Source: Verrucomicrobiota bacterium (GTDB lineage Bacteria; Verrucomicrobiota; Verrucomicrobiia; Limisphaerales; UBA11358). Taken from it: 63,174 nucleotides of DNA. The stretch lies in assembly GCA_049523555.1 (NCBI GenBank), contig JBEKMU010000002.1, positions 1-63,174 of the forward strand, read 5' to 3'. This document shows, piece by piece, positions 2,828 through 56,944 of this stretch. The position numbers and the translations under genes were made by a program. The notes beneath the pieces were generated by a model. It was not told the DNA's origin and made no database searches. It was given only the letters and a program-made list of their open reading frames with translations. The first letter of the stretch is position 1; the number at the start of each line of letters is the position of its first letter.

Positions 2828-3213
2828 GACCTATATACAACTGTTACTCCAAAATTACTGTGGGGAGGTCAAATCAGCCTTGTATGCGCAAATTGGTTTT
2901 GGCTACATGGCGGGATAAAATGGCTTCGTTTTGCGGAAAGGATGGAAATAGAGCCAAAGAAGATTTTAGCGTTGTGTTCACCAGATGTCGTTCTGCAAGA
3001 AGGATTTTAATGGTGGAGTGGAGATCAGGATCATCGTCTTCAAACCCATTTGAAACGGAGATGGCCGCCGAAATGAACCCAATTTTGTCGCCACTTTGTC
3101 GCCACATTTTTGGGCTTGCGGTAGGTTGTGATGGGTTGGGATAGGAACAGGGGTCTACCGACGAGATCGGTTGCAACCCCTTAATTCCAAGCTAACTATA
3201 TTGTGCTGAATTC

Positions 3214-3256
3214 GTTGCGGGGGCTGGATTTGAACCAGCGACCTTCAGGTTATGAG
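3214..3256 (-). repeat. Distal att site: partial copy of the tRNA-Met 3' half (anticodon loop to acceptor end)
   Basis: gttgcgggggCTggatttgaaccAGcgaccttcaggttatgag here versus gttgcgggggTAggatttgaaccTAcgaccttcaggttatgag at 56870-56912. The 4 differences are compensatory in the T-stem. Confidence 0.85.
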
Positions 3257-3385
3257 TGTGAAGGTCAGTCCCGCGTTGGCCATCTTCGCCATCTCAATTC
3301 GATAGTTTTCATACGATTTTAATTGGGTTTTCAAGTTCTTCGCCAAAACTTGGAACTTGATGAAACACCGTGAAACTTCTTGCAC

Positions 3386-3782: not shown

Positions 3783-6700
3783 TCACACCCGAATCACAGT
3801 CCGCCGAGTCTCCTTGCTTGATTTTATCTGACTCTGTTGCTGTGAAATCTTTTCCTCGGTTTCGTCCTCGGCAGCATCTTCAACCTGGCTTGGCGCTTGG
3901 TTTTTGGTGAGATCAAGTTTTTCCTCAATTTCGGACTGACGCCCGGCAAGGTGGTGGTAACGCTTTTCATGCTCAAAGGGTGCGCCGACTTTGGCCTCAA
4001 ATTCCTTCGCCCGCTTCTGCGAGTCGCGGATGTCGCGTTCAAGTCCTGTGGCACGTTCCTCGAATCCCTGCACGATGGATTCCAGCGAGCGAATTGTTCC
4101 GAGCGCGGTGTCCGTGACCCGCGCGCTGTAACTGTTTTTGCCGTGCAAGAGCAACTCGACCTCGCTGTTGTAAGAGGCGTGCAGCGACAAATCAAACCCG
4201 GCGAATTTTCCAACGCGCGCATTGGCCCCGAAGTTGTTTTTGATTTTTCCCGCGCGCCGAAAAAGCAGTTCACCGGCGACGCCGCGATTGTCGAGCGTCT
4301 GCCCGTCCAGTTCGATGCGGAACTTGTCGCCGGACGTGTCCTGACGCACGGCCAAGTCCTGTTGCAGATTTGCCAGCCGCTCGGTGCATCGTTGGACTTC
4401 CTCGTGCGAATGGCGCAGATTGGCGCGAATACGGTATTGTTCCTCGGCGTGGGCGGAACGCAGCCGGGTGAGCTTCATCAGCTCGGCGTCCACCTGCGCC
4501 TTTTCAATGACGAGCGGATTGCCGGAGGCGATGGCCTTGACCTCGGCATAGGTGAGCGCGGTCGAGTCGAGGTCTTCGATGCGGCGAATGGTCATGTCGC
4601 CACTCATCACTTGGGAAATGAACTTGGCCTTGGTCTCCAACGTCTGCCACATATACGCATCGAACGAGCCTTCGGTGACGTAACGGTAAATCTGCACGGC
4701 GGCATTTTTGTTGCCCTGCCGCAGAATACGGCCTTCGCGTTGCTCCACGTCAGCGGGCCGCCACGGAGCATCGAGGTGATGCAGCGCAACCAGACGCTCC
4801 TGCACATTCGTTCCCGACCCCATTTTCTGCGTGCTGCCGAAAAGGATGCGCGTCTTGCCCGCGTTCACTGAACGAAACAGAGCCAGTTTTGCATTATCGG
4901 CATCGTAATTTTGAATGAAGGCGATTTCCGCCTGCGGCACGCCGCGTTTCACCAGTTTTTCAGCCATGTCATCATAAACGGAGAAGCCCCTGTCCTTTGG
5001 CGTGGACAGGTCACAGAAAACCAGTTGTGTCAGGCGATCATCTTTGGTCGCCTCCCAAATGCGGTAGATGTTTTCGACGGCCAGATTGACTTTGCTTTGC
5101 GGGTCATCCTTGGCCGAAGGCAGCATCAACCGCAAATCGAGCGCGGCCTTGCGTCCCTCGCTCGTGATTTTGAGCATATTGTCTTCCGAAGGATCAACGC
5201 GCTCGGTTTTCAACTTGTGGGCGCGTTCGACCAGCGACTGAACGAACTTTTTCAGGGGTGGCGTGGCGGGCGCGCTGCGAATGGCCGGTTTCTCGCCTTC
5301 CAGTTTTGGTCGCGCCAAATTGAGCATCTGCGCCGTCTGCACGTCGGCCATCTGCCGGAATATCTGCATCAATTCCGGCACGTTGATGAAGCGGGCAAAG
5401 CGCGTGTTGAGCCGGTAGCCCGCGCTGTCCGGCGCGAGTTCCATCGCCGTCACCGGCTCGCCGAACGTCGCCGCCCAGCCGTCAAAATGATGCAGTTTGT
5501 GTTTTTGCAAGTCGTCCGGCTGCAAATACCGCTGCATGGTGAACATCTCGGCCATGCTGTTGGCTATGGGCGTGCCCGTGGCGAAGACCACACCCCCACC
5601 TCCATTGACGGACTGAATATGACGCACCTTGAGAAACATATCAAATGCCCGTTCGCTCGCCGTTTGCGGCAGACCGGCAATGCGCGTCATCTTGGAAATG
5701 TAAAAAAGATTTTTGAAGTAATGCGCCTCGTCCACGAAAAGCCGGTCAATGCCGAGTTCCTCAAAGGTCAACGTGTTGTCTTTTTTGTGGCTGGCGGCGA
5801 GGGCTTCAAGTTTGGCCTCCAACCGCTTCTTGGCCTTTTCAATTTCCTTGACCAAGCGCCGGTTGTCCGTGCCCGCGTGTTCGCGTTTCACGTTTTCCAG
5901 TTCGTCCAACTGCTCCTTGAAAAAGCGAACCTGCGTTTCTTCCGACAGCGGTATCCGTTCAAAGCCGGAATGGGTCACGATGATGGCATCCCAATTGCCG
6001 GTGGCGATGCGGCTGAAAAGTTTCCTGCGGTTCTGCGCCTCGAAATCCTCCCTGCCGGCGACGAGGATGTTTGCGCCCGGATACAGCGTGAGCAACTCGG
6101 TGGAAAACTGGCCGAGCATGTGATTGGGAACGGCGAACATCGGCTTGCGTGCAAGTCCGAGCCGCTTCAGTTCCATCGCCGAAGCAACCATCGTGTAGGT
6201 CTTGCCCGCGCCGACGACGTGGCCGAGCAGCGTGTTGTCCGTTTGCAGGATGCGCCAGACGCCCGCCTTTTGATGCAATTGCAGTCGAACCGCCGAACTC
6301 GCGCCTGGCAGCGTCAAATGTTCGCCGTTGAATGTGCGGACCCGGCTGTGATTGAACGTGTCATTGTAGAGCCGCACCAACCGTTCGCGGCGGTCATCGT
6401 CCGCCCAAACCCATTCCTTGAACTTTTCCTTGATGCGTTCCTGCTTTTCTCTGGCAGCTTCGGTGGCGGTCGGATTGACGACGGGCTTTTTGTCCTTCGT
6501 CATGTCATAGACGGTCGGCGTCTTGAGATTGAGCGCGTCATGGATCAATTCGAGTCCGGTGTAGCGGCTTGTCCCCCAATCCGTCGTGTTGGCCGTTGAT
6601 TGTTTGGCCTCCCAATCCGCCGTGACGTGCCATGAACCGAGCGCGTGAATATGGCTGACTTGAACACCGGATGAAACGCCAAGTAATTCATGGACGAATC

Positions 6701-8608
6701 TCTCCACGTCCGGTTCCGGCAACCAGGTCGCGCCCAAGCGCACGTCAATTTCGGTGGCGGGCAAATCTTGCGGCTGCACCGACTTCAACGCCTCGACGTT
6801 TTCGCGGAAACGCGGGTCGCCAACGCTGGCAGCATCGGCGGCGACGAGTTTTTCGCGGACGTTGCCCGAAAGGTATCGGTCTTCGGTTTCCCATTGATTG
6901 GTCTGTGGGTTGAGAAAAATCATCCCCTTCAAATCGGGCAAAAACTCGTCAACGGACTGGTCGAGCAAACCGGCCATGTGGTCGAGGTCAACGCGGCCTT
7001 TTTCATTGAGCGAGACGAGCAACGCCTCTTTGGGTGTGCCAACGGATTCGATGGGTTTTTTGTCGTGAATGGTTCGCTCGTGGAAAATCGAGGCTTTGGT
7101 TGCGATGCTCCTTTCGTCATCGTAATGCTCCAACGACAGCAGCAGCGGCAAATCAGGATCGCCGTCGAAGGCGTTCTGGTTGACGCGGGCGTTAATCGGG
7201 CCGAAACGGGAAAGGAAACGGTCGTAGGCAAGATTAAGCCGGTCACGCGCCTCGATGACCTGCTCCTCGCTGCTGCCGTCGAGCTGTGAACGCAGGCAAA
7301 CCCGCACCGCGTCGCGCACTTCAATCATTCGCCGGATGCGCGAGCGCGTTTCAACGGGCATATCGTCCAGCGGACGAAGTTTGTCATCTTCACGAATGCA
7401 AACGCGGCCGTCTTCGTGGACGCAAAAGGCGTTGGGCTTGATGTAGTCCGGCGCGGGAATGTTCACGTCCGGGACCCGCGCCGCGACTCGCTGATTTTCA
7501 GCCTGGAAAATGTTTTGCGGAAGCCGCTCAACGGCCTGGGCCAATGCTTCCTCAAAATTACGGCCGTCCGGCACCAAGACCGGCTCGCCGTCCCGATACA
7601 TTCCCCTGGCGAGCCGCATTTTCCCCAACATCATTTCGGGATGGGCGACGAAGTATTCATTGAGCGGAATTTTTTCCTTCTGCTCGTTGATGAAATCCAC
7701 CGATGTTTTCCAAGTTGCGCCGCACGGCGATTCTCCGGCGCGCAACTTGCGGAGCATCACGATGTCGGTGGTGACTTCCGTTCCGGCATTTTTCTTGAAG
7801 GCATCGTTTGGCAAACGGATTGCGCCGAGCAATTCCGCTTTGGCGGCGAGCATCTCGCGCATGGTCGAATCCAGCTTGTCCATTGTGTGATGTGAAGTGA
7901 TGAACATGAGCAGGCCGCCCGGTCGCACCTTGTCCAAGACGGCGGGGAAGAAATAATCGTGGATGGGAAATTTGTGTTTGTTCCAGCGGGGGTCGTGGAC
8001 GGTATAATCACCAAACGGGACATTGGAGATGGCGAGGTCGAAAGATTCGTCGGCGAGTTTGGATTTTTCAAAGGGCTGCTCGCGGATGTCGGCGGCGGGA
8101 TACAACGCTTTGGCGATGCGTGCCGTCAACGGATCAATTTCGATGCCGGTGACGGTGGATTGCCGGAGCATTTTTTCGGGCATGAGGCCGATGAAATGGC
8201 CGATGCCGCAGGCAGGTTCCAGAACCTGTCCGTCCTGAAAACCAAACCGTTGCGCCGCCTGATACATGGCGCTGATGATGGCCGGGGATGTGTAATGCGC
8301 GTTGAGCGTGGTGGAACGGACTTGCTCATACTTCCCGTCAGTCAATTCTTCCCGCAATGCTTTCCGTTCGTTTGCCCATTCCCGGTTGCGGTCGTCAAAG
8401 ACCTGGGGCATCGCGCCCCAACCGACATACTTGACCAGCACGGCTTTCTCATCCGAGGTGGCGGATCTCGCCGCCGCCTCCAGCTTGCGGAGCAACTGGA
8501 TGGCCCTGACGTTTTGCAGGAACTTCTGCTTGGGGCCGCCCGCGCCCAAGCGGTCGTCGTCGGTGATGCGATAGTTGTTGAGATTCCTGTCGCCCTGGTG
8601 GCCGACGG
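3783..8608 (-). CDS. N6-adenine DNA methyltransferase / SNF2-DEAD helicase fusion (DarB-like); start uncertain
   Basis: SAM motif I 'VLEPACGIGHFIG' and catalytic 'SNVPFGD'. Helicase motifs 'GAGKTYTM', 'DEAHYFKN' and 'QREGRILRQGN'. The ORF stays open up to the ATG at 8939, but 8609-8939 overlaps better-supported genes in other frames. Confidence 0.85.
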
Positions 8609-8863
8609 CTAGGTCTCTTCCGCCGGGAGCAGGATGTATTCTTCCCGCACCATTTCCCAAGCGCGGTCGTGCGCCTGTTGCGGCGTCAATCCCTGCTGGA
8701 TGAACTTGGTCCGCAACTCGGCCATTTCGTCCTTTGTTTTCCGTTCCGCCTCCAGCAGCATTTCCTGCAACTGGCCTTTGGCCTCCAGTTCGCGCACCAT
8801 TTTGGGGCGGTGTTCGCGCCAGTGTTTCTCGGCCATCATTCCGTATTGAGTCAGTGTGTTCAT
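8609..8863 (-). CDS. Small helical protein, TnpV-like (recalled similarity)
   Basis: 84 aa. The pattern 'QYGMMAEKHWREHRPKMVRELEAKGQLQEMLLEAE...' resembles TnpV-family proteins of conjugative transposons. Clean composition, unlike the G/R/A-rich alternative frame. Confidence 0.55.
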   Translation of the reverse strand: MNTLTQYGMMAEKHWREHRPKMVRELEAKGQLQEMLLEAERKTKDEMAELRTKFIQQGLTPQQAHDRAWEMVREEYILLPAEET

Positions 8864-8902
8864 AGTGCCTGCGGTTGGAACCGAAAAGTTCCAACTGATT
8901 TT

Positions 8903-9268
8903 CTAAACCTTCTTTGACCGTTTTGTCAACTTTTGGCATTTGCGCCGGGATTGCTTTGGAGGCTCAGGATCGGGCAATGGCGCGGGGCCGCCTTTGGCGA
9001 AATCCGCGTCCAAGTCCTGAATCTCCTGCGGGAAAAATCGGACGATGGGAAGGCAAAAGACCTTTTGCAGCCCGGCCAGGACTGTATCGCTGATTTTGGT
9101 AATGCCCCACTCCATGCGTGCCAGCGACAGACGGCTGATGTCCACACCTTTGCATTGCAACTTGGCCGCCAGCCTTTCCTGCGTCCACTTCTGCTGGTAA
9201 CGCAGATAGGCCACTCTCCGGCCAGTGACGTTCTGGAAACGCATCCCCTTGCCATCCTTAATTTCCAT
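8903..9268 (-). CDS. XRE-family HTH transcriptional regulator
   Basis: 'GRRVAYLRYQQKWTQERLAAKLQCKGVDISRLSLARMEWG' matches the HTH_3 pattern. Start taken at the internal Met (MEIKDG...); the ORF extends to 9307. Confidence 0.7.
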   Translation of the reverse strand: MEIKDGKGMRFQNVTGRRVAYLRYQQKWTQERLAAKLQCKGVDISRLSLARMEWGITKISDTVLAGLQKVFCLPIVRFFPQEIQDLDADFAKGGPAPLPDPEPPKQSRRKCQKLTKRSKKV

Positions 9269-20641: not shown

Positions 20642-20711
20642 ATTTTAAGTTTTTTATTATCACGGCGGGTTTTCCGCCAAACACGCGGTCATCCTCTCAA
20701 ATTTTTTGAAG

Positions 20712-20738
20712 CACTTTGTTCATTTTTTGAACAAAGTG
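20712..20738. promoter_or_regulatory. 27-bp palindromic operator candidate (copy 1) in the T4SS / AAA-ATPase divergent promoter
   Basis: CACTTTGTTCA-ttttt-TGAACAAAGTG. The same arms and flanks recur at 50479-50505. Confidence 0.6.
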
Positions 20739-20767
20739 AAAAAATCTTTCTGGCAGGATGGGAGGCC

Positions 20768-23436: not shown

Positions 23437-24294
23437 CTACTCGGCCAGAACGATTGCCTCGTGATTGGCAACCCGTTCGGCGAGATTCCAAAGCTCGCGG
23501 TTCAAGCGGATGTTCTGGTCGAGGCCGGAAATGGCGCGGGTGCGCGGGAAACGGCGTCCGTCCTCACGGCGGCGTGACCAGTCACGTTGACCGCCGCGAA
23601 TCAAATGCTCCTGAACGCGATTGAAGACATGCCAAAGGTCGTTGCCGGCATCTTCATTGCGGCGACAATCCAAAAGTTTTTGCGGATTGATCGGGGCTTT
23701 GTCGGTGTCCTCGAAACGCAATCGCAACGCGGCTTTGGCGAAGGTTGCAATCTCGGTGCAGTCAAGCTGCCGTTCTTTGAAAGCGTCCACGCGCGCGGTG
23801 ATGGCCGGAACTTGTTCCAGCAATTTGAAGCTGGCTTCAATCACTTCGTCCGGCGTGAAACCACTGTGCCGGATGCAGACGCGCTCAAAGGTGGCGTCAG
23901 CGATAATCATGCCGTTGCCGCAAACAAACCGGAACAAACCGGCGTGCAACTGATACGCGCTGGAACGGTCATGTGAATTGATTAAGACCAATTCGGGCGA
24001 GTATTCATTCCCGACAGGTTGCGCCTCACGCCGCTGGAAACGGAGCAGGTGCTTTTGAAAGCCGCGCCGGTTGTCGAGCCTCACGATTTGTTCGGAAGCC
24101 TGAACCGGAGACCAGCCCGATTCACGAAGCCGCGAAACAATTTGCGCCGTGGGAACGAACGCATAACGCTCGCTCACGTCCGGCAGCGGCGAAGCTGCAA
24201 ACACGGACGGCGCAAGGCTGCGGATTTGCTCGTCGGCCAATTCAGCGCGGCGAACGAATGTTGTTGATGTAGTGAACATATATTTGCCTTTCAT
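23437..24294 (-). CDS. DUF932/DUF945-family protein (typical ICE/plasmid gene)
   Basis: 'LINSHDRSSAYQLHAGLFRFVCGNGMII' matches the conserved DUF932 core. Confidence 0.8.
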   Translation of the reverse strand: MKGKYMFTTSTTFVRRAELADEQIRSLAPSVFAASPLPDVSERYAFVPTAQIVSRLRESGWSPVQASEQIVRLDNRRGFQKHLLRFQRREAQPVGNEYSPELVLINSHDRSSAYQLHAGLFRFVCGNGMIIADATFERVCIRHSGFTPDEVIEASFKLLEQVPAITARVDAFKERQLDCTEIATFAKAALRLRFEDTDKAPINPQKLLDCRRNEDAGNDLWHVFNRVQEHLIRGGQRDWSRRREDGRRFPRTRAISGLDQNIRLNRELWNLAERVANHEAIVLAE

Positions 24295-24339
24295 TTACTT
24301 TGTTATTTGTTTTCTTTGCACGCGCAGCGACAGGTGTGC

Positions 24340-24478
24340 GCGATGAAAACCTAAAGGCAGGGCTTTGGCGTTGGCGGAAAGGTCAAGGAGGAACGGAAGC
24401 GGCGAGTCCTGTTTGAGCCGACCCGTAGTATCCTTGACGTTTCCGCCAACGACATATAATCGCCCGCCTTTTCATCGC
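24340..24478 (-). other. Extended imperfect hairpin (~140 nt) in the DUF932 leader region
   Basis: Outer arms gcgatgaaaa/ttttcatcgc. Inner 20-bp arms gttggcggaaaggtcaagga/tccttgacgtttccgccaac (1 mismatch) with a 41-nt loop. Confidence 0.5.
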
Positions 24479-24564
24479 TGCGAACGCGGGCGGCATCCCG
24501 CTGCATGAGTTGGAACTATGAATTGTCCAGGGAGTGACTACTCAAAGATGGAAAATTGAAACAC

Positions 24565-24668
24565 GCTTCGGTCAGCGGTTGGCGGGCGGAAGAAGTGGAG
24601 TGCAGGCGCAGAGACGATTTTAGGAACGGAGCCGGAACGCAACGCCGCCGCCAACCGCTGACGGAAGC
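24565..24668 (-). ncRNA. Conserved structured element, copy A (ssDNA or RNA hairpin; function unknown)
   Basis: ~21-bp stem and ~55-nt G/A-rich loop. Homologous to 55100-55201, with compensatory stem substitutions and a conserved loop. Confidence 0.55.
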
Positions 24669-24806
24669 GGACGCGGCTGCGTTTCCAGCATTCCGCGCGG
24701 GACGAGCGGGCGGGAAATGACGGAAGGCGGGCCGGAGCGATATTAGCGAGGCCGCCGTGTCAGTTCCAGCCCGTTGGTCCCGGCGGCTTTATTCATCACA
24801 GCATAT

Positions 24807-24814
24807 AAAGCTTT
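24807..24814. repeat. IS66 target-site duplication (left), AAAGCTTT
   Basis: Identical 8-mer immediately flanks both IS ends. Confidence 0.85.
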
Positions 24815-24877
24815 GTAAGCGTCACGCGGAGCACCTCTATCGGATAAAGTCATAGATGTCGTAGCATAACAGCTACG

Positions 24878-25261
24878 ATGAATACGACACTTGGCGATGA
24901 AACAACTATCTTGAAGACAGACGTGCTGGGGCGGGTGAAGACGCCGCCGACGCGCCGGGAACAGTTGCTGGACGAGTTTGAGCGGAGCGGATTGACTGGG
25001 CAGAAGTTTGCGGAGGTGGTGGGCATTAAATACCCGACGTTTGCGACGTGGGCGCAAAAGCGGCGTCGGGCGCGTGGCGCGTATCGGGCAGTCAAACGTC
25101 CCAAACAACTGCGTTGGCTGGAGGCGGTGGTGGAGCCGGAGCGCGGCGATAAAAGTCCACTCGTCTTGGAGTTGCCCGGTGGAGCAGAGGTTCAGATCAA
25201 TGATGTCCAACAGGCGGTGTTGGCGGCGGCCTTAGTGCGGGCACTGGCCAAGCCATGTTAA
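24878..25261 (+). CDS. tnpA: IS66 accessory protein TnpA (Orf1)
   Basis: 127 aa. 'RREQLLDEFERSGLTGQKFAEVVGIKYPTFATWAQKRR' is typical of IS66 Orf1. Confidence 0.85.
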   Translation: MNTTLGDETTILKTDVLGRVKTPPTRREQLLDEFERSGLTGQKFAEVVGIKYPTFATWAQKRRRARGAYRAVKRPKQLRWLEAVVEPERGDKSPLVLELPGGAEVQINDVQQAVLAAALVRALAKPC

Positions 25262-25611
25262 GTTTTTCGGGCAGCCTGAAGGTGTTTGTGGCCGTGGAAG
25301 CCTGCGACATGCGCAAAGGGTTCAATGGTCTGCACGCGGCGGTGACGGAGCGATTGGGCGAAGACCCGCGTGGCGGGGCGCTGTTTGTGTTCAGCAACCG
25401 GCGGCACACGCGGATCAAAATCCTGTGCTGGGATGGCACCGGGCTGTGGGTGTTGACCAAGCGGCTGGAGCGCGGGACGTTTTCCTGGCCAAAGAACGTG
25501 GAACCTGGGATCGCCAAACTGAAGTTGACGCCGCAGGCGCTGGCGCTGTTGACCGACGGAGTGGATTTGCGCGGAGGGAAGTTGCGTCCGTGGTATGAGC
25601 GCGAGACGTGA
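25255..25611 (+). CDS. tnpB: IS66 accessory protein TnpB (Orf2)
   Basis: 118 aa. 'DMRKGFNGLHAAV...LFVFSNRRHTRIKILCWDGTGLWVLTKRLERGTFSWP' is the IS66 Orf2 signature. Confidence 0.9.
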   Translation: MLSFSGSLKVFVAVEACDMRKGFNGLHAAVTERLGEDPRGGALFVFSNRRHTRIKILCWDGTGLWVLTKRLERGTFSWPKNVEPGIAKLKLTPQALALLTDGVDLRGGKLRPWYERET

Positions 25612-25673
25612 AAAACGCCGCGCGAAAATTCTTTTGCCAAGTTTGAACATCTGACGCCGCGGCGCGTCAGAGT

Positions 25674-27203
25674 TTGCAACCGATGACGTCGCGCGAACAG
25701 GAACTCGCCCGCCAGTTGGAAGAATGCCAGGAGGCATTGGCGCAGAGCCGTCGCGAGAATGAACTCCTGCGTCAGAAGATAGACCTGCTCATTCGGCGCG
25801 TGTTCGGTTCGAGCAGCGAGCGGCTGGATCGCGCGCAACTGGAACTGCTTTTGAAACTGCCAGAGGGTTTGACCGGCCCGGAGCCGGTTGAACCTTCAAC
25901 TTTCAAGGTAACTTCCCGAAATTCGCGGAAGGAACGCACACCCCGTTTGCCGGAGAACCTGCCGGTGGTGGAAGAAGTAATTGACCCCGAGCCGGTGAAG
26001 TCCCGGCCCGAACAATGGCGTTGCATCGGCCAGGAAGTCAGCGAGCAACTGGACTTTGAACCGGCGCGCTTTCTGCGCCGCCGGACCATTCGCCGCAAAT
26101 ACGTTCACCGCCTTGACCTCAACCGCGCGCCGTTAATCGCACCGTTGCCCGAACGTCTGCTGGATCGCAGCCTGCCCGCGCCGGGGCTGCTGGCGCACAT
26201 TTTGGTGGGCAAATACTGCGACCACTTGCCGCTCTATCGGCAGGAACACATTTACGCGCAACGTCACGGAGTCCATCTGCCGCGTCAGACGCTGGCGCGC
26301 TGGGTGGAGTTGGCCGCCGATTGGCTCCAACCGATTTACGCACACATCCGCACCGGCGTTTTGGCCGGCGGCTATGTGCAGGTGGATGAAACGCCGATAG
26401 AATATCTGGCACCGGGCAACGGCAAGACCCGGCAGGGCTATCTCTGGACGGGCAGTCGTCCTGGGGGCGACGTGTTTTACCGTTGGGAAACCAGCCGCGC
26501 TGCCGCGTGCCTGGATAACGTCATTCCCTTGAATTTTAGCGGCACGCTGCAATGCGATGGCTACTCTGCGTATCGTGCCTTTGCCAACAGCCGGGCCGGA
26601 GCGATTGAACTGGCCGGCTGCTGGGCGCATGTGCGACGAAAATTTTATGAAGCGATGGAACAAGCGCCCCGGACCACGGCCTGGCTCGTGCGCCAAATCC
26701 AGCAGCTCTACCGGATTGAAGCGCATCTGCGCGAACACCGCGCCGGTCCCCGGCTGCGTCAAGCCCTGCGTGCCAGTCAAAGCTGCCCCATCGTCGAACG
26801 GATCGAACGCGCCTTGATCCGACTCAAAGCCAGCGGACGCCATCTGCCGCAGAGCTTGCTGGGCCAGGCCATTGATTACGCCTTGGGCCAGTGGCCCACC
26901 TTGGAAGTGTATCTGGCCAACGGCCGGGTGGAGTTGGATAACAACCTGGTCGAAAACGCCATTCGCCCCACAGCCATCGGCAAGAAGAACTGGCTTTTCA
27001 TCGGCGATGCCGATGCCGGTCAACGCAGTGCCATCCTCTACACCCTCATCGAAAGTTGCCGGCGACGCGGCGTTGACCCTTTCGCTTATCTTCGTGACGT
27101 GCTCACGCGCCTGCCCAACATGACCAACCATCAAATCCCCGAAGTGACCCCGCAAGCCTGGAGCAAAAGACAACCGCCGGTGCAACGCCAAGCCGCATCA
27201 TAA
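25674..27203 (+). CDS. tnpC: IS66-family DDE transposase TnpC
   Basis: 509 aa with an N-terminal leucine-zipper-like helix. 'YVQVDETPI', 'GYLW', 'LQCDGYSAY', 'CWAHVRRKF' and 'NNLVENAIRP' are conserved IS66 blocks. Confidence 0.9.
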   Translation: MQPMTSREQELARQLEECQEALAQSRRENELLRQKIDLLIRRVFGSSSERLDRAQLELLLKLPEGLTGPEPVEPSTFKVTSRNSRKERTPRLPENLPVVEEVIDPEPVKSRPEQWRCIGQEVSEQLDFEPARFLRRRTIRRKYVHRLDLNRAPLIAPLPERLLDRSLPAPGLLAHILVGKYCDHLPLYRQEHIYAQRHGVHLPRQTLARWVELAADWLQPIYAHIRTGVLAGGYVQVDETPIEYLAPGNGKTRQGYLWTGSRPGGDVFYRWETSRAAACLDNVIPLNFSGTLQCDGYSAYRAFANSRAGAIELAGCWAHVRRKFYEAMEQAPRTTAWLVRQIQQLYRIEAHLREHRAGPRLRQALRASQSCPIVERIERALIRLKASGRHLPQSLLGQAIDYALGQWPTLEVYLANGRVELDNNLVENAIRPTAIGKKNWLFIGDADAGQRSAILYTLIESCRRRGVDPFAYLRDVLTRLPNMTNHQIPEVTPQAWSKRQPPVQRQAAS

Positions 27204-27280
27204 GTGTCGTAGCATAATACCTCTCACGCTTATGACCCCGGCCGTTGCTCTGTCAAGTAGGTGCTTGGCGTGACGCTTAC

Positions 27281-27288
27281 AAAGCTTT
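27281..27288. repeat. IS66 target-site duplication (right), AAAGCTTT
   Basis: Identical to 24807-24814. Confidence 0.85.
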
Positions 27289-27460
27289 TGTCGGCGGCGG
27301 AATGCTCCGACGCCAGTTCAGTCGAAAGCGGGTAAAAGTGAAAATTTACTGGCGATGCGTTGGTTGTGAATTTACCAATCAAAAAGGCAGGTCGAGAAAC
27401 GCCAACTTTGGATGAGTCAAGCAACTGCTTTGCGATGGCTGTCTCTGACGGTGGACACCA

Positions 27461-33216: not shown

Positions 33217-36200
33217 TTATCTTGGACTGTTCCAAGGAATTCGTGTTGGTTGGGTAACGCCCTGTGCGCGCAGGTTTTTTAACGATTGTGCAACCAACTG
33301 CCTGGCTTCTGCTTCGGTTGCGCCTCCAGCCATCAATGCTTGAACCGCAATTTGCGATTGTGCTTGAAGCGTATTTGCCCCGCCACTTGCAGCCAATTCG
33401 TCGAAAAGGGTGCGCTGCGCTGCCGTCATATCTTGATGGCTCCACCCCATACTTTCCATATATTCTTGGCTAATACTAAATCCTTCGTTGGGATTATAAT
33501 TGAGATCGCCTCGAAAAGCCGATTGAGCATGGACATGATGTCCACCAACATCACCATAAGTTCCCATCAAATCCGCGCCAGCTTTCTCAGTGGCTTCAAG
33601 TGCTCCTTTTGCCGTATCCTCGGTAAGTGATTTGGTAAACGGCTTGGCCACATCTTTCGCTAAAACTTTTACTGAATTTTCAACGAAAACCTTGCCGGGA
33701 ATAAAGTTGCCCACCATGTCCGCTGTGTTTGCTACCCAACTAACACCCGACACGGCCCAAGTCGTTATTCCCAAGCCACTGCCGAAATCGGGATGGGTGA
33801 ATTCATACCCAGCCTCCCGTCTGGCGCTGGTATTCAAAACGGTGTCGGACAAAGATTGACCTATGGCCGAAGCTTCTTGGTATGGGTCATACGCCAGGTC
33901 ATTCCAATGGACATTAATTTGTATATTGCCGTTGCCATCAATATACGGAGTCATCACTATCGGAAGTGTGCCTGCAAGATCCGCCGCAGCCGCGTCACCA
34001 TTCTGGTAATAATTCTGTGAAATGCGCCCGTCGGCGTCGAAACCGTTAATGGGGTCGCCGCCGCAGAATGTGAGATAATTTGGATCGCGCTCGTTCCAAG
34101 CCGAGTCATACGACAACCACATTCCAGCAAAGGGGTCATAAACTCTGGCGCCAATGTTGTAGTAGCCAGTGATGTCCGGCCAATGCCCGCGCCAAGCCGA
34201 GGATTGCGCCACGTCAACACCGTGACCCAACGCCACGGGCCGATAAGCCGGCACCGCGCCGTAACCCGTAGGCCGCGACGAATTCCAAGCCACGACGCCA
34301 TTGGTTACTTCCGCCAAAATGTTTCCGCGAAAGTCGCTGATGACGGGATTGAACAAACTCAAATAGGGCGACACGGCATCGAAGCCGCCCGTTCCATTCT
34401 CTCCACCATACTTGCCGTTTAGGTCGGGGCCGTAGAGTTTCCAGACGGTTTGATCGTTATAGGAAACGCCGAGTTCCAGAAATTCCACCTGCGGGTCGTA
34501 ATACTGGTTGATGGTCGTGGGCGTGACTCCAGCGGTTTGCACTTGGCCGTTGATCATTGGGTAGCATTGCGTGAACAGTCGCCGGTCCAATCCATCATAC
34601 TCCGCGTGCAAATAATAGCCGCTTTGGGTGCTATCAAAGTCAAACACGTCAGTCAGCCGGTCTTTGGCGTCCCAATACAATTGTTGCTGGTGATTGACCG
34701 TGCCGTCGGGTTTGCGCCAGATGCGTTGAGAAATATTTCCGCCTGAGTCGCGCCCGACGGTGGCGGTCTGTTGTGCGAAATTGTTCGTGAACGAATTGGT
34801 CGCCCATGCGGTGAAGAAGCCGCTTGGATGCAATGCCGCAACTTTCAATTGATGCGCGCCGGGCGTCAGTTCCATCAGTGTGCGCCATTGGAAAGGATTG
34901 GAAGGATCGCCGGAACTGTTCGTGGTCACAGCCAACGGCTGGCCGTCCAGCAAGGCTGTCAACGTGGACAGTCCATTCACCCGCCCGTAGGCCGGGTAAC
35001 TAATGCACGTATTGGTCTCGGTGTTGACGCGCGAGAACGGGCTTACGCCGCCGTTCCAATCTGCCGAAGTGGAGTTGGGCGCTCCCATTTGCGTGAGCAC
35101 GCCCGGCCCGGCGGCAACGCCGCTGTCATAAGCGAACGAGTTCGTCCAAGCGGCAGTGCCGTTGAGATTGAGTTGTTCCTGCGCCAACCTGCGGCTCATG
35201 CTTGTGTAGGAGTAAATGTGCGAGTCAGTGAAGTCAGAACGATTAAGCGTGTGGGAATACAGTAATCCGTCGCCAGACCATCCCAGGGATTCAGTCAATT
35301 GTGGCACGCCGCTGACATCGGTAACGATGGAAAAGGGACGGCCTTCGCCGTCCCGTGAAGTGATGGTGGTGGTCTTTGTGCCGACTGCGCGGCTGGTCAG
35401 CAATCCGGCGGTGTCAAAACTGTAACTGCCGCTGCCGGTCGGGTCGCTGGCGTAGATAAGCGCGCCATCCGCGCGCGACGCGAAATTGTAGCTGGCCCCG
35501 TTGATGCCCAACCCGGTGCGCCGTCCGGCGGGGTCCCAGGTCTGGCTGGCACCGGAGAAAGTTGTGCCGTTCCATGTGACGGTTTCGGAACTCAACTGTC
35601 CGTAAGCATCAAAGGTGCGTGACACGACTTTGGGGTCCGCTCCAACATCGTTGCCAGTGTTCTGTTCGGTGATGTTGGTCACGAACCCGCGCGGATCGTA
35701 ATTCCAGAACGTGTCAACATGTGTATAATTAAAATCAGTGCGCGAAATGGAAGCCTGATGCAGACGGTCATCGTAACTATACGTGCTGACCAAACCCCGC
35801 CCATCGGTTTTGGTGTCGAGCAATCCGGCGAACGAATTTCCGCCGGGATAATAGGTGTAGGTGTTCGTGCGCGTGCTGACGCCGCCGGCACCGACGAGGC
35901 AATCTTGCAGAACTTGGCCGGCATTGTTGTAAATGGCCGTCCATTGCAAACCACCCGGCATGGTGCGGTTAGTCATGTCGCCCATCGGATTATACGCAAA
36001 AGTGGTAAGCGCGTTGTCGCGGTCAATTTTGCCAATGAGTCGGTTCAATCCATCGTAACTAAAACTCGTGGCCGTCCAAGTTGTGACTGCGCCACTGGCC
36101 GAAGAATCGTGCTGCGCGGAAGCAAGATTTCCCGCAAGGTCATACTGATTCAAGGTGAACTCCGCCGCATTCGCCGACGGGTAGGCAATGGATAGGACTG

Positions 36201-39200
36201 TATGCCCGTCGTTGTCGGTATAGGTCGTGTTGACGATGGCGGACGCACCCGAACCATCAGTAGTAGTGACGCTGTTATGGTCGGGCGAGTAAGCCATGTA
36301 TTTTTCGCGCACAAGCGCCCCGGAAGGGCTGTAAATTTGGGAGCCGGTAACGCGCCCCAAAGCATCCATTGTTGTAACGGTGCTTTCGCCGAGTGCATTG
36401 ACGTTCGTCAGCGAGCGTCCGGCGGCATCATAGAAATTGGCAACAGCCTGCTGGAGAATATTGGTGACATAGGTGATGTTCGTGCCAGGGACTCCAATTC
36501 CGCCGCCGCCGCTTTCCGAAACCGTGACAATCGTCGGGCCTGCTGTAACTTTGACGCGGTCAAGTCCGTCATAAGCGGCGGTAAAAACATTGCCTCCTTC
36601 ATCCGCTTGTTGAACCGCATTGCCACGAAGATCAAGTTGAATGGAATTGGTAACTTCCGGCACACCTGCGGCGGAATAAAATATCCGGGTAGCAATAAGG
36701 TTGACATCATCATAGGTCGTCTGCCAGTAAGCTCCGTTGCCCTGAATTTCTTTGTTTATACGTCCATCAAAGTAGTAACGCCAGGCGTTGGTCGAGCCGT
36801 CAGGATTGCTGCGATACTCTGGCTTGCCGGTGTCGGTATAAAGTGTGACCGCCACTCCACCGAGCGCATTGGTATGCGTCTGGACTAATCCACCCGGTTC
36901 ATAACTGAACCCTTCCGCGCTCAAGACGGTGACGCCATCCACGTCGAGATGTTTGGTCTGCACCAGCCGACACAAGGCATCCCAGGTGTTGGTTGTCATC
37001 GCGCCACGCGGATCAACAGCCAGCGTCAGGTTTCCGAGTGGGTCATATTGGTAAAAACTTTGGGCGTATTGGTTGTAACCAGCGGGCGCTTCAACTCCGC
37101 TGCCGTCGCTCTTGGCCTCGGAACGCCAGTGAATTTCCGTCGAGCGGCGTCCCATGCCATCGTAATCAAGGAACACATAATCTTCGGGGTTGTAACGCGG
37201 GCCATCCACCCAAGTCAGTTCGCCGTTGTCGTTGTAATAATTGAAGCTCCACGACAGCGCATTGCCGAACTCGTCGAAGTCCTCCTGTGCGGTTGGCCGA
37301 TTGAGCGCATCGTAATCAAAGAACTTGACCGCACCCAAAGCGTCCACCTGATTCACCATTTGCCCGCGCTCGTTGTAGAAGAAAGTATTGACGACATTCG
37401 GGTCGCCGGTGCCGGTATAGCGGATGGATTGGGTGATGAACCCATGTCCATCATACGTCAAATCATTGGTGGCGGCGTCGGCTGAACCATAGGCGCGAAT
37501 CAAGCGCGTCAGGACACCAAATGCCCGATTCGTCTGCGTGGTGTTGCCGTTCACCACAACATTCGTCGCATTGCCGTAGAACATGAAGCTGGTGCTGATC
37601 GGCGTTGCTCCGGCATAGCGAATAACTTGTTGCGGCATGAAGGTAAACGTTGGGTCATAAACAGTCACGACACTGTTGCCAACAGGGTCGGTTATTTGAA
37701 CCGGCAAACAGTTCGTGTTGTAAATGGCCGTGTTCGTGGCTGTCTGTGAGGCAATACCATCGCCGGTGAGGTCGCCGGTCACAATAGTATTGGTGACGTT
37801 GCCGTTTGAATCATATTGATACTGGCTGACAAGGCCGCGCTTGTCCGTGCGCTGTCGCACACTGCGCGGGTAGTAGCCGGCGGCACTTGTGTTGGTGGTG
37901 AACCAGACCTGCTGAATCATTTGTCCGAGCGGGTCGGTGATTTTGGTGATTAGATTGTTGGTATATTCGTAACGGTTGGTGTGATTGTTCCCGTCAATGA
38001 CAAGCGTGTAGCCGGTGATAGTGTTAGTCCAAGAATTGGTGATGTTAAAATTATTCGCATAAACAAATGCCGCCGTGAGAATGGGATTCAAATCCAGACC
38101 GGCGGTGGACAACTGGTTGGTGACACGCCGCTGGCTATCATAGGCGTTGATCAGTTCGCGTCCGTCCGGTTTATCTTCCTCAACGATAAGATGCGTGGAG
38201 TAAGTCGCCGTGCCGCCGGTGACGGCCTGCGTGCCGTGCAGATACTGGTAGGAGCGTGTGGAGTTGTCCGGCAGTGTAACACTGACCAAATCGCCATAGT
38301 CATCATAGTAATAATACATCCAACGACCGTCGCCGGTGTAAGCGTCAATGATGTGGCCGTAAACGTCGTAATCGAAACCAAGAAAGTTTCCATTGCTGCA
38401 CTGGATGCGCTGCATCTGGCCGAAATTGGCATCCGCCGAATTTGTGTCGTAGGCAAACGTGTAGTAATTGCCACGGCAATCAGTCCATTGGAGCAGATAA
38501 GGTCTGGCATTGGTAACTGCGCCGCTGTTGAATTTCATGAATTGGAAGACACGGACGCTGCCGTCAGCGCCATAGAGAGTATAGTTGGTGACAGAGCCGT
38601 TGACGGAGCGCAGGATGTAATCACGCAACCGATTGGCCAAGCCGCCCACGCCCGCGACGGTGTTGTTGTTCAATTGCGGGTTGGCGGCAAGCGTGGGAAA
38701 CCACATATTGGTGCTGGCGCTGTTGGTGCTATGCACATAAGCCAGCACTGCTCCGTCCATGTCCGCCGCATAGATGTTGGTGCTGTTTTTGCTGAGGCTC
38801 AAGTAGGGCATGATGTTGAGCATCCAGCCGCGGCCGAACTGGTTGTCAGCCACATTCTGGCTGGAATAATTGCGGCGCAAGGCCAGCGGTATCGGGCCGG
38901 GCAACTGCAAGTCGGTTTCGCTCACATAAAATTCGCCGGTGATGTTGTTCACCGGGTCGGAGACCTGCGCGCCCGACTGCGACGGGTCGTTGGGAGTTCT
39001 CAAGTTACCGTTCTGCTCGCTGGCCAGAATGTCCGAGGACAAGGCCGAGGACGAAGTGCCCGCCGTGGTTCCAAGCTGCTGCGAAACGCTGGTCGCCCAA
39101 GCGGTGGTAAATGGATCAACCACAAACGTGCTGGTCTGGCTGGCTACGGACGGCGCATCATAACTGGCGATTTCGTCGGGCACCGTGGCCGTCTGGCTGG

Positions 39201-42200
39201 CCGGCTGGTTTAACGCGGCTGAATAATCATTGTTATTGTCGCTCACATTGTAGTTGGGGGTGTTGGCGGCTGCCACGGTGTTGGCCGGCAAATTCTGGCC
39301 GGCAAATCCTCCGTTCATGCTGTTGGGAGAAATCAGCGCCCCATAGTAATAAGGATCCAAAATCAATGCTCCCATTCCTTTATAGACGGAATTAGTTATC
39401 GGCCCCGGTGTCATAAAGACGGTCACATAACCGTAGGTTGAGGAGTTTTTCAAATTGCTTGTAAGCTGCTGCCAAATGCTTGAATCCCAACTCTGCAACT
39501 GCTTCCCTTGATAATTCGTCGTGCCCTGAGCAACGTAGTTATAGATGTTTAACGGCACGATTCCCAACCCCCTGCTTTGTGCTAATTGCAACAGCCGGAC
39601 GGTGGAAACAGCGTTGGTCTGCTGATAGAAACGGTTGATGGCCTGGTGTTCCTCGGCAGAGCCGTCCACAATTTTAAGCAAATTGTAATTCCATTCTGAC
39701 ATTGTGTAGTTCTGCCCCGAATCCGGGTGCAGCGTGTCATTGCCCGCCGCCATCGTTTCGTAGAAAAACATATCCACACAAGGCAGGATGGGGTCGGTGC
39801 CATTGCTCAAATTGCCATTGCTGTCCCGCGCCGGTATTATTTTTGACAAGCCAGCCGCAAAATACGAAAGCTGGGCAAATTTTTGCCATTGCTGGTTTAA
39901 CTGGCTGAACTCGCTGTCTTTTTCGTAATACGACATCCCGGCCAGATACATCAATGCCCCTTCATAGACATCGGGCGACATGCTGCCGGCCTGCGAAGGA
40001 TTGGCATTCAACTGACTTTGCATCTGCCATAAATCCGCCGCGTGGACGTTGAGCATGTCGCGCGTCACCTGCCCGTAATTCAGGCAAATGGCCGCCTGGT
40101 CGCCGACCCGGAGCGGTCGTTCAATGTCAATCTCGTTATAGCCGCTGAGACTTAGAAACGTCAGCGTCGGGTCAATGGCATACGACGGTGTGATGGCGCG
40201 ATGGCGGTGATACTTGAAGCGCACCCCCAATGAGTAGTCATTCGCGTCGAAATTCAAAGTAAGCACTTCCTTCGACAACAGGTTGGTGTCATTGCTGAAC
40301 GCAAATTGACTGGTGATGTTGGTGCGGAAAGGCATCAGGATGAGATTTAACTGCACGTTGCCGCCGACAACGGACTGGTTGATATAAAATTCGCGGTTGT
40401 GCAAATCCACCAGCCGCATGTCTCCAGTCTTGATGTCCTTGGTCGGGTCGGTCTGGCTGTAAACTTCGACGCTCATCGTGTCGAAAACGTTGGTCAACGC
40501 CGGATTGATGTTGGTGAGCGTGCTGGAAGAAAGATTTTCAACCGGCGTGCTGACATTGGTCACCCAGGTCGGAGTCGGAAAATCCTGCCAGCGCGCGCAG
40601 TAATGCTGACGATTGATTATTTTGACGCCGATGTCGTCCACAGAGACACCCGGATGATTTTGCAAAAGGGTCTGCTGCAAATATCTTGGGAAAATAACGC
40701 GCGGGGTGTTGTCACCATCCACTGCCAGCGACATGAGGTTCGTGTTGCTGTAAATATAATCATGCACCCATTCGTAGGCGTTGCTGTAATTGGTGGGCAT
40801 TTCATCGAACAAATTCAGCCCTTCATTGATTTGATAATCCTTCAGCCACGGGAAAATATGCACCCAATTGGTGCCGATGTAGGCGGCAACCCACGGATAG
40901 TTCACCGCAATCATTGTATTGGTGGTGTAAAGCTGCCCGGCTTCATTGATGTCACCATGCACTTGGAATTTGAGCATCTGGCTTAACCGGGCATCCAAAA
41001 TTTGCATTCCGTTGTGCGGAGCAAATTCATACACGGCGGGCACGCCCGCTTGCCGCAGCAAATAAACCAGCAGCGCGCATTGCTCGATGGGCGAACCCTG
41101 TTTTTCCAAAAATGTTCCCAATGCGCCGCGTGTTACTCCCGGCGGGTTGATGGAATTTTCAGCGACGTTTCCATTGTCGTTGACATCAATCGGATCGGTA
41201 AGGCCGACTTGATTGATGACGTAATTGGCCAGCGCAATCGGGTCATTGCCCATGCTGGCCACAAAGTTGTCCAAAATCGGATGCCGCCGCAGTTCGGGGC
41301 TGTTGTCCAGGTTGGTTGCGGACGATGGCGTGAAACTCACGACATTAGTGACTGGCGGCGTGTTGGTCAGCATTTCCGACAGGGTTTTGCCTGCGTAAAA
41401 CGGCGGCAAGGGACTGCCGTTAAAATGAGGCTGGTCGAGAAATGTCGAACGCCACGGCGGTCGCTGCTCAAACTCCAACGAGTAGAGCAGGGAGTTTGTC
41501 ATCTGTCCGCTGCCGTTCACCACCATCGGATTGCTTATGTCGGCGGGATTTCCGGCGATGCCAACGATGTAGTAGTAATTGGTGGCCTGACTGCTCGCGG
41601 TGTGCGTCAACACATACGCGCCCCTTGAATTCTCACCCCAATTCAAATTTGGAATGCCCGCTAGAATGGTTGTCAATCCGTAGGCATTGGTTGTGAGTTG
41701 AAAACCGTTCGTCATGTAGGTTTGCCACAAGTTGGTGTTGGACACTGCGGGCGGGTAAATACTAACTGAGCCAGCCAGTTGATAATTGGTGCAGTAATAT
41801 GCCTGAACCACGACCGGCTGATTGGACAAAATCGGGTCGCCCGCATAGATGCCAAAACTGTAAGGCTGGCTGAAATACAACGGCGTTCCACCGACCCGTT
41901 CGCCAAAGGCGACAATGGGATTGTTGAACGCGATCCCGTTGGCGGTGTTTGTTGCGTTGTAGTGGTAGAGTGTCTGGCTGCTCCAGGATGAAAGTCCAGG
42001 ATACAAGGCCGAGCAGTTGCCGTTCAAATTGCTATACACGGTTCCCGTTTCGTATTCCAAAGGGATCACTTGCGACCAGTAGGTCGGGTCGCTGCCGCTG
42101 CCTCGCCAATACATGTCTGCCGGCGATACGACCGAATTGGTGGTTGAACCATTCGGCAGAAGGGTCACGGTGGCATTGGTCGTGAGTCCCGGAAAATACG

Positions 42201-50451: not shown

Positions 50452-50478
50452 ACCACCAGTAAACCAGCTTTTTTGAAT

Positions 50479-50505
50479 CACTTTGTTCATTTTATGAACA
50501 AAGTG
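50479..50505. promoter_or_regulatory. 27-bp palindromic operator candidate (copy 2), 29 bp upstream of the relaxase start
   Basis: CACTTTGTTCAT-ttt-ATGAACAAAGTG. The extended ~40-bp block is shared with 20702-20744. Confidence 0.6.
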
Positions 50506-50533
50506 AAAACGGGGCTTTGGCATACTTTCCTTC

Positions 50534-55026: not shown

Positions 55027-55099
55027 ATACTCATTGGGCCTAAAAATGAAAAGTCAACAAAGCGATTGCACAAAATTATGGCGGCCTTGCCTTGATTTT

Positions 55100-55201
55100 G
55101 CTTCGGCCTGCGGTTTGGCGAACGGGAAAGTGGAGCGCAGACGCAGAGACAATTGGAACGGAGCGGAGCGAAACGACCGTCGGCAAACCGCAGGCGGAAG
55201 C
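55100..55201 (-). ncRNA. Conserved structured element, copy B
   Basis: Arms GCTTCGGCCTGCGGTTTGGCG / CGGCAAACCGCAGGCGGAAGC. Loop GTGGAGCGCAGACGCAGAGACAATTGGAACGGAGCGGAGCGAAACG. Homologous to 24565-24668. Confidence 0.55.
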
Positions 55202-56846: not shown

Positions 56847-56867
56847 AGCACTCATTTTACCATAAAT

Positions 56868-56944
<77 letters not shown>

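Follow-up and report, generated by a model that had tools for sequence, protein, structure and literature searches.

A conserved three-hairpin module of Verrucomicrobiota integrative conjugative elements, a candidate single-strand initiation signal

The window analysed here is a stretch of 63,174 nt from a Verrucomicrobiota bacterium of a peat metagenome (contig JBEKMU010000002.1, positions 1 to 63,174), which carries an integrative conjugative element (ICE). In this element, an initial annotation had singled out two copies, A and B, of a hairpin of about 100 nt, and had offered a promoter or origin active in single-stranded DNA (ssDNA), or else a leader RNA, as its possible nature. We find that each hairpin is the 3' third of a discrete non-coding module of three hairpins, 223-240 nt long in the window and ~245 nt in the family consensus, which recurs in related elements and whose stems covary. 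The module probably works as folded ssDNA that helps the element to establish itself after transfer. More tentatively, we propose that it is an initiation signal of the single-strand origin (sso) or single-strand initiation (ssi) type, which would lie on the transferred strand and prime synthesis of the complementary strand. We infer that the folded form is DNA, that the strand concerned is the transferred one and that priming takes place on it. Next to module A, a hairpin of a separate family is a strong candidate for an ssDNA promoter.

A covarying three-hairpin module and its family

Hairpins A (24565-24668) and B (55100-55201) lie where the initial annotation had placed them, and the features that it listed were all found in the window sequence: a common stem base, GCTTCGG...CGGAAGC, with a conserved G.G mismatch, compensating stem swaps between the two copies (T-A to C-G and A-T to T-A) and a purine-rich apical sequence, GTGGAG.GCAG.CGCAGAGAC, present in both. 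On either strand, each copy forms a stem of ~24 bp topped by a large apical region, with z values of -4.7 to -5.8 relative to dinucleotide shuffles, and the conserved 19-base loop word GTGGAGNGCAGNCGCAGAGAC occurs at two sites only in the window when up to three mismatches are allowed, for a chance expectation of 0.01. The similarity of ~80 nt that had been reported beyond the hairpin is real and turned out to be larger than claimed, comprising a middle hairpin and a second long hairpin of ~95-110 nt, with compensatory changes. The region is non-coding because, set against the conserved sequence, the overlapping + strand open reading frames (ORFs; 24556-24720 and 55092-55238) are read in one frame in A and in another in B, and a conserved small protein was rejected on the same ground.

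In gene sense, i.e., on the minus strand of the window, the order within the module is hairpin 2, the short middle hairpin and hairpin 1, the last being the hairpin of the initial annotation, and the base of hairpin 2 reads CCGCCGNGACCAACG.../...CGCTCGTCNCGNGCGG. The parts of module A (24565-24787) and of module B (55100-55339) are the following:

24565-24668, + strand: hairpin 1 of module A, with a 24-bp stem, a G.G mismatch near the base and a purine-rich apex (helix 5; 24 pairs, 11 changed on both sides)
24669-24693, + strand: short middle hairpin of module A (ACGC/GCGT) and linker (helix 4; 5 pairs, 4 changed on both sides)
24694-24787, + strand: hairpin 2 of module A, base CCGCGCGGGACGAGCG.../...CGTTGGTCCCGGCGG (helices 1-3)
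55100-55201, + strand: hairpin 1 of module B, from sequence, folding and alignment
55202-55339, + strand: middle hairpin (GCCGA/TCGGC, 55205-55218) and hairpin 2 (55229-55339) of module B

Module B ends 20 nt from the stop codon of the integrase gene. On the + strand, purines make up 67-79% of the apical part of hairpin 1, with GGN-like runs, e.g., GGAGCGGAGGGCGGAGAG.

Four related contigs, found via DUF932, gave the first diverged copies; one genome per species was scanned with a loose pattern that matches all five known copies, and nhmmer profiles were applied to the fetched loci and to the window. The window and 54 loci together hold 71 module matches, with two or more copies in 14 sources, and an element contains several copies because separate 8-kb pieces of the same contig each hold some. 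True copies are nearly all in metagenome-assembled genomes of Verrucomicrobiota (Limisphaerales, 'Verrucomicrobiae'). Five loci are labelled otherwise, three as plain 'bacterium' and two as 'Bifidobacteriaceae'; the two latter bins carry the same backbone genes as the other module loci and are probably mis-binned. The other pattern matches, in Actinomycetota, Pseudomonadota and elsewhere, were rejected by the profile and are due to chance. Homologous contigs also occur in one metatranscriptome, in which the contigs are unstranded and may include DNA.

In the alignment of 58 distinct copies, conservation begins abruptly at CCGCCGTGACC and stops equally abruptly at GACCGAAGC, and the flanks are unrelated. 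Copies within one element are only ~70% alike, and each type is kept at the same position across elements: A-type copies after a MORN-repeat gene and before DUF932, B-type copies after the integrase gene and before an operon for zinc-ribbon and PUR proteins, and further copies after the gene of the coupling protein (T4CP). We regard these position-specific paralogues as old functional copies and not as recent insertions. As a side observation, CGCTCGTGACGAGCG, which lies within hairpin 2 (55230-55254 in the window, and also in the hairpin 2 consensus), is self-complementary and may fold as an alternative to that hairpin; a T run comes after it in B-type copies, giving a terminator-like arrangement on the + strand.

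All three hairpins are backed by covariation, and the structure is real. RNAalifold predicted both long hairpins and the middle hairpin, and 17 of 27 conservative pairs keep pairing through double changes. A fuller structure of 78 pairs was compared with 500 shuffles and with controls in which the partners were slid by 1-3 columns. Both sides were changed at 42 of the 78 pairs, against a mean of 28.1 in the shuffles, none of which reached 42, and 25-28 with slid partners. The covariation score was 0.165 (0.074 in the shuffles and 0.04-0.06 with slid partners), and standard pairs filled 86.9% of the cells (81.1% and 31-41%, respectively). The description of a structured, conserved, non-coding repeat of a conjugative element, as given in the initial annotation, is thus borne out by the 71 matches and by stems whose covariation lies well above both controls.

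The absence of a known Rfam family was also confirmed. Rfam 15, run on the whole window at gathering scores, returned tRNA only; region A searched at E <= 10 gave two sub-threshold matches to microRNA models (E 0.52 and 5.4), which we take as chance, and neither a typical module copy nor its promoter-like hairpin, of the family described below, gave a match at E <= 10. No match was returned by blastn against a plasmid collection or by a pattern scan of viral contigs.

The strand that folds, gene orientation and a promoter-like hairpin

The gene-antisense strand, which is the + strand of the window, is the more stable in 58 of 58 copies, with a mean gap between the strands, partly compositional, that amounts to 21 kcal/mol under RNA parameters and to 8.8 under DNA parameters. 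The wobble pairs point to the same strand, and this evidence is independent of strand composition. On pairs predicted from the sense strand alone, 160 cells are A.C in gene sense (i.e., G.T on the antisense strand) versus 73 that are G.T; A.C is the more frequent at 34 pairs and G.T at 17 (sign test, p = 0.024). Among the paired cells in gene sense, 6.6% are A.C and 2.1% are G.U. Three near-invariant mismatches of the sense strand are A.C and become G.T on the antisense strand, and the internal CAA/CTC loop of hairpin 2 (gene sense) reads as G.G, A-T and G.T on the + strand. In a functional sense RNA, the wobble pattern would be the reverse.

The features that form the setting of the modules in the window are these:

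3209-56917, no strand: ICE carrying both modules, delimited by 53-nt direct repeats, with tRNA-Met and integrase
50534-53660, + strand: TrwC-type (MOBF) relaxase gene and a conserved downstream gene of 116 aa
54128-55026, minus strand: operon downstream of module B, encoding a zinc-ribbon membrane protein (54496-55026) and a PUR-like ssDNA/RNA-binding protein (54128-54439)
23437-24294, minus strand: DUF932 gene (PF06067, E 1.4e-43), the first downstream of the promoter-like hairpin
24337-24483, + strand: Frpo-like hairpin of 147 nt, from a separate repeat family, between module A and DUF932

The ICE is inserted in tRNA-Met (56868-56944), next to its integrase gene (55360-56751), and the boundary repeats (3209-3261 and 56865-56917, 87% identical) duplicate the 3' end of that tRNA. 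Its type IV secretion system (T4SS) genes are on the minus strand, as are those of the TrwB-like coupling protein and of the Bacteroidetes-type TraG/VirB4, and the TrwC-type relaxase gene is on the + strand. Modules A and B lie upstream, in the sense of the minus strand, of the DUF932 operon and of the zinc-ribbon/PUR operon, as first described; for the latter, the position stood and the frame had to be corrected, the true zinc-ribbon gene being 54496-55026, which encodes a small membrane protein with CxxC...CxxC followed by two hydrophobic helices. A 160-aa ORF at 54542-55024 is an out-of-frame shadow of this gene. A conventional sigma70-like promoter of the TTGACT type lies 50-70 nt downstream of B-type copies, between module and operon, and the PUR-repeat gene neighbours modules in 5 sources.

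Across the family, the module is oriented with VirB4 at 13 of 13 loci, opposite to a ClpB-like gene at 18 of 18 and, with the window counted, opposite to TrwC at 5 of 5. The relaxase gene and the 116-aa gene are always on the strand opposite to the gene sense of the module, and in 4 of 5 elements the trwC operon ends 23 nt to 1.4 kb before a B-type module. The downstream neighbour is often convergent. Real convergent ORFs were recognised with Pfam, codon-position GC having failed to separate real from shadow ORFs, and they comprise a YhcG/DUF1016 nuclease, TIR, WYL, LysR and IstB genes, the ClpB-like gene and the gene after trwC. They end 10-190 nt from the module, the stop codon of YhcG lying ~10 nt from hairpin 1. 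Because the next gene downstream is so often convergent, a role of the module as promoter or leader does not fit.

The hairpin at 24337-24483, ~80 nt from hairpin A on the DUF932 side, belongs to a family with 29 copies in related loci, 23 of which were aligned. Read on the + strand, its 3' arm holds TTGACG (24434-24439) and, after a spacer of 15 nt, TATAAT (24455-24460). TTGACG and the spacer lie within a 24-bp stem (arms 24366-24389 and 24431-24454), directly after which TATAAT is unpaired; an outer stem pairs GCGATGAAA (24340-24348) with TTTCATCGC (24470-24478), and in all two stems besides the 24-bp one close the structure. In the aligned copies, CTTGAC and TAnAAT are conserved and the 15-nt spacing is fixed. 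The spacer is free to vary but covaries with the distant 5' arm (e.g., TTTCCGCCAACG vs CGCCCGCCGCCG): in the spacer helix (helix 2), 9 pairs are changed on both sides, none of 500 shuffles reaches the observed covariation and the slid controls collapse. Such covariation makes sense only if the hairpin forms.

In duplex DNA, the hexamers face the module, away from the genes, with a 15-nt spacer that suits duplex promoters badly, and the minus-strand equivalent of the hairpin has no -10. According to the modelled fold, polymerase would leave the + strand hairpin down the stem, towards DUF932, and would do so only if the + strand is single-stranded. Promoter hairpins lie on the gene side of the module in 29 of 29 cases and on the same strand in 34 of 34 pairs; strong promoter-like sites that lie within 220 nt of a module and, as duplex, point at it were found at ~10 of 69 copies, and all are embedded in a hairpin. 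A YhcG gene lies between module and promoter hairpin in five elements. The word ACGGAAGC is found in both the module and the promoter-hairpin families and shows no enrichment within the window.

In Frpo-type promoters, -35 and -10 boxes are restored by stem-loops of the single strand; such promoters are active as ssDNA and fall silent on conversion to duplex (PMC9849209, PMC12672017, PMC11541004). The hairpin at 24337-24483 likewise presents -35 and -10 boxes on a stable hairpin aimed at genes, and it is a strong candidate for an ssDNA promoter of DUF932 or of the MORN-protein gene.

Possible functions of the module

Conjugative signals that act only in the single strand have been demonstrated in a few enterobacterial IncF and IncI plasmids and in ICEBs1. 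For the module, we tentatively favour an sso/ssi-type initiation signal because it has no promoter hexamers, occurs with or without a promoter hairpin, often abuts + strand genes and looks like sso1 of ICEBs1. The initial annotation had recognised no sigma70-like -35/-10 in the stems, and indeed neither long stem has such hexamers on either strand, nor does the family consensus on inspection. The Frpo-type promoter identity that it had suggested for the hairpin itself was not upheld: the hairpin lacks these boxes, and the promoter-like hexamers belong to the different family at 24337-24483. Of its other suggestions, the ssDNA readings are now favoured by strand-specific folding in 58 of 58 copies, by the type of wobble and by the convergent genes, and a leader RNA appears unlikely because the antisense strand folds better, wobble is mainly G.T there and copies often abut convergent genes. 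What is expected of an sso or ssi, a non-coding and structured region specific to one strand, was found in the lack of a conserved ORF, in the folding and wobble biases and in the invariant orientation.

Two independent pointers, the folding bias of the module and the geometry of the promoter hairpin, suggest that the + strand is the functional single strand. The strand that is single-stranded during transfer or rolling-circle replication is accordingly predicted to be the + strand of the window, the template of most element genes. Expression of genes coded on the + strand has to await synthesis of the complement, and convergent neighbours are explained by a priming site, not by a promoter or a leader. 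Our working model is that hairpins resistant to SSB, the protein that binds single-stranded DNA, would expose conserved loop bases to a priming activity, which may be the host primase, a primosome or RNA polymerase, possibly assisted by the PUR-like ssDNA-binding protein of the element on the (GGN)-rich loop. A primer would be laid down at the module, and the complementary strand would be synthesised towards the 5' end of the transferred strand, across the DNA that lies downstream in gene sense, whatever its gene orientation. The adjacent operon and its conventional promoter would thereby become duplex, and redundant copies of the module would be spread over the element. In parallel, the hairpin at 24337-24483 would act as an Frpo-like ssDNA promoter and drive DUF932 or the MORN-protein gene from the same strand.

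The closest parallel is with sso1 of ICEBs1, an orientation-specific region at the 3' end of the relaxase gene, for which three stem-loops are predicted and whose function a second region also serves (PMC4595007). Like sso1 and plasmid sso, the module is non-coding, orientation-specific, structured and a few hundred bases long, with three predicted stem-loops (PMC4595007); B-type copies lie just past the relaxase gene, the several copies of the module parallel the redundancy of sso1, and both serve an ICE that needs a duplex form before integration. The module differs from them in lacking sequence similarity and RSB or CS-6-type motifs, in having several dispersed paralogues per element instead of one, and in host phylum and T4SS type. 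In the ssi of G4/phiX174 type, two or three SSB-resistant hairpins are grouped on one strand and, with no promoter hexamers, form the site at which complementary-strand synthesis starts. The module resembles them as a hairpin cluster on one strand devoid of promoter hexamers, and differs from them in having no known sequence relation and no evident conserved single-stranded start trinucleotide.

The ssDNA promoters of F, known as Frpo or ssi, were reportedly described by Masai and Arai in 1997. Frpo/ssi1-3 and the class 2-3 promoters of IncF and IncI plasmids share with the present families their nature of dispersed long-hairpin repeats with one orientation in a MOBF element and their position upstream of establishment genes, and a dual role in transcription and priming has been proposed for them (PMC9849209; PMC12672017; PMC11541004), Frpo-type elements being described as both transcribing and priming (PMC9849209, PMC12672017). 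If the + strand is the one transferred, the orientation of the module fits the Frpo-type placement, i.e., upstream of genes templated by the transferred strand. In F (NC_002483), the leading and tra genes are on one strand, for which the transferred strand is the template. The regions upstream of ssb and of the gene that precedes the DUF932 gene are near-identical and form hairpins of ~330 nt and ~-120 kcal/mol as DNA, which match the published Frpo2 and Frpo1 (PMC9849209). Behind the ~330-nt Frpo1-type hairpin of F (L125 11560-13260), the annotated DUF932 gene (64438-65259) comes second, so that DUF932 follows an ssDNA promoter in F and a putative one in the Verrucomicrobiota element, the two promoters sharing no sequence similarity. 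Because a simple hexamer search missed the published -35/-10 of Frpo, the control in F confirms no more than the strand logic, the hairpin of ~330 nt and its DUF932 neighbour.

The module hairpin differs from Frpo by the lack of -35/-10 in its stems and of homology to the Frpo of F, and nhmmer with the family profiles found nothing at E <= 10 in the leading region of F. The neighbouring hairpin is shorter (147 nt versus ~330 nt), and its -10 is unpaired at the end of the stem. By analogy, then, the neighbouring hairpin would work like Frpo and the module, as we tentatively hold, like an sso or ssi. The module itself falls outside Frpo, any sso type known to us and any Rfam family, and judged by sequence the two hairpin families are both new.

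Several observations weigh against a single-strand initiation signal. The composition of the antisense strand (41% G and 27% C) underlies part of the stability gap, and the shuffle z values of the two strands differ modestly (-6.5 antisense versus -5.3 sense). Wobble of the G.U type and better folding of the + strand fit equally an RNA made from the + strand, and the sole metatranscriptome with homologues offers unstranded contigs. No similarity to the known sso motifs was found, including RSB and CS-6 (TAGCGT); TAGCG does occur in many copies, within the loop of hairpin 1, and is absent from A and B. A primase gene was not found in the element, where the proteins of 3357 and 1718 aa and the 'Zn-ribbon' protein were checked, nor was a recognisable origin of transfer (oriT) or nic site, a conserved hairpin plus nic having been sought upstream of trwC and beyond the trwC operon. 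Finally, the orientation of the relaxase gene is not that of F or R388. In F, the relaxase and the leading genes share the strand templated by the transferred strand; here, trwC is on the strand opposite to DUF932. The prediction of the transferred strand therefore needs an ICEBs1-like layout, with the relaxase gene coded on the transferred strand, or an oriT located downstream of that gene. In ICEBs1, replication and transfer are said to run from oriT through the relaxase gene.

Among the alternatives, an RNA transcribed from the + strand survives best, and we nevertheless consider it unlikely. The module would then be a 3' end, terminator or insulator for convergent transcripts, such as those of the trwC operon, of the ClpB-like gene or of inverted cargo like YhcG, or else a noncoding RNA driven by TTGACG-N15-TATAAT as a duplex promoter. 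The better folding of the + strand and the G.U-type wobbles, conserved ones included, would be accounted for, as would the convergent genes that stop 10-23 nt from hairpin 1 in several elements; the duplex hexamers of the neighbouring hairpin are aimed at the module, with YhcG between them in the five elements mentioned above, and the terminator-like CGCTCGTGACGAGCG plus T run of B-type copies and the homologues among metatranscriptome contigs, which carry no strand information, are further points in its favour. Yet in most copies neither long hairpin is followed by a U tract, many copies have no convergent gene at all, and a simple terminator needs neither three hairpins nor conserved loops. 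As to the noncoding RNA, a strong promoter-like site within 220 nt accompanies only ~10 of 69 copies and is in each case embedded in a hairpin with the fixed 15-nt spacer, and the covariation of this spacer with a distant arm is sensible only if that hairpin forms.

Somewhat less probable still is that the module is an ssDNA landing pad and not an origin. It would receive the PUR-like protein of the element, or SSB or RecA modulators, and thereby shield the incoming strand, keep it in order or stimulate the neighbouring ssDNA promoter much as an upstream activating element does. The evidence on strand and orientation applies here just as it does to an initiation signal, and the purine-rich, GGN-like loop of hairpin 1, together with the PUR-repeat gene right behind module B and next to modules in 5 sources, suggests a specific protein partner. 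A module lies on the upstream side of each of the 29 promoter hairpins; however, modules also occur without promoter hairpins (71 versus 29), up to 6.7 kb of cargo can separate the two, and the common word ACGGAAGC is not enriched in the window. A bolder form of this idea, to which we give about the same small credence, is that the module represents a new class of sequence-specific ssDNA signal, read by the PUR-repeat protein of the element and not through RNA polymerase hexamers; the protein would take the place that a plasmid SSB has in enterobacterial leading regions, dock on the GGN-rich loops of the transferred strand and recruit the host replisome or shield the strand.

A cis-regulatory RNA on the sense strand, be it a leader, an antiterminator or a processing site in the mRNAs of the backbone operons, is very unlikely. 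In favour of it, the module invariably runs in the direction of the T4SS and most backbone genes, precedes operons in the window and has covarying stems, but the sense strand is the weaker folder in all 58 copies, its excess of A.C over G.U cells (6.6% versus 2.1%) is the reverse of what structured RNAs show, the next downstream gene is often convergent, genes have their own promoters between themselves and the module, and Rfam gave no match. Hardly credible, finally, is a mobile or recombination element (a miniature inverted-repeat or palindrome-associated transposable element of IS200/IS605 type, or an attC-like single-strand recombination site that captures cargo): sharp ends, unrelated flanks, multiple copies, strand-specific imperfect hairpins with conserved mismatches and adjoining variable defence-like cargo would suit it, but terminal inverted repeats, target duplications and a conserved flanking target were not found, the copies of one element are only ~70% alike, each type keeps its position across elements, the orientation is invariant, all copies with readable context are in a conjugative element, and the sequence is far more conserved than attC sites.

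Other features of the element and significance

In related elements, the interval between module and promoter hairpin is a cargo hotspot, filled with defence-like genes that are often inverted: YhcG/DUF1016 PDDEXK nuclease, TIR, WYL regulator, HipAB and SMC-like ATPases (loci L043:4986-6665, L018, L019, L023, L104; L106:6289-7287; L094:2102-3223; L003:1030-8562). In the window, an IS66 element (tnpA/B/C, 30-nt inverted repeats) occupies 24807-27288, exactly at the upstream edge of module A, and in relatives the MORN-protein gene abuts the module at this insertion point. An 8-bp target duplication was not seen around IS66, and there is a metagenome contig in which 24807 is joined to 27289-27318 in reverse complement.

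A 41-nt repeat (20702-20742 and 50469-50509) contains a perfect 11-bp palindrome, CACTTTGTTCA N6 TGAACAAAGTG, and lies upstream of the only two + strand backbone operons, those of the ClpB-like ATPase and of TrwC. As it is also upstream of the ClpB-like gene and is absent from relatives, it is more probably an operator than an oriT. The regions 33217-43290 and 3783-8939, the latter near the left end of the element, hold large cargo or establishment genes. The 3357-aa protein is RHS toxin-like cargo, and the 1718-aa protein combines a methyltransferase with an SNF2/ResIII helicase. Outside the element, a 1557-aa ORF (57828-62501) is built of repeats of 117 nt (39 aa) and 258 nt.

To our knowledge, conjugation and conjugative elements of Verrucomicrobiota have never been studied, and in most phyla we know of essentially nothing on how the incoming strand of an ICE is converted to duplex and its first genes are expressed. 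We describe two conserved hairpin families in ICEs of uncultured Verrucomicrobiota, with comparative signatures for which other explanations are hard to find: a strand-of-folding bias in the module, and promoter hexamers that are conserved while their spacer covaries with a distant arm. The ssDNA promoters that we know of have been shown so far only in enterobacterial plasmids, and the promoter-hairpin family suggests that they are not peculiar to enterobacteria. The model predicts which strand is transferred, reduces the signals to compact parts of 147 nt and ~245 nt and provides a sequence handle with which such elements can be searched for in metagenomes. Should the module prove to be a signal read by the PUR-repeat protein, it would form, together with the hairpin-embedded promoter, a complete establishment system programmed in ssDNA.

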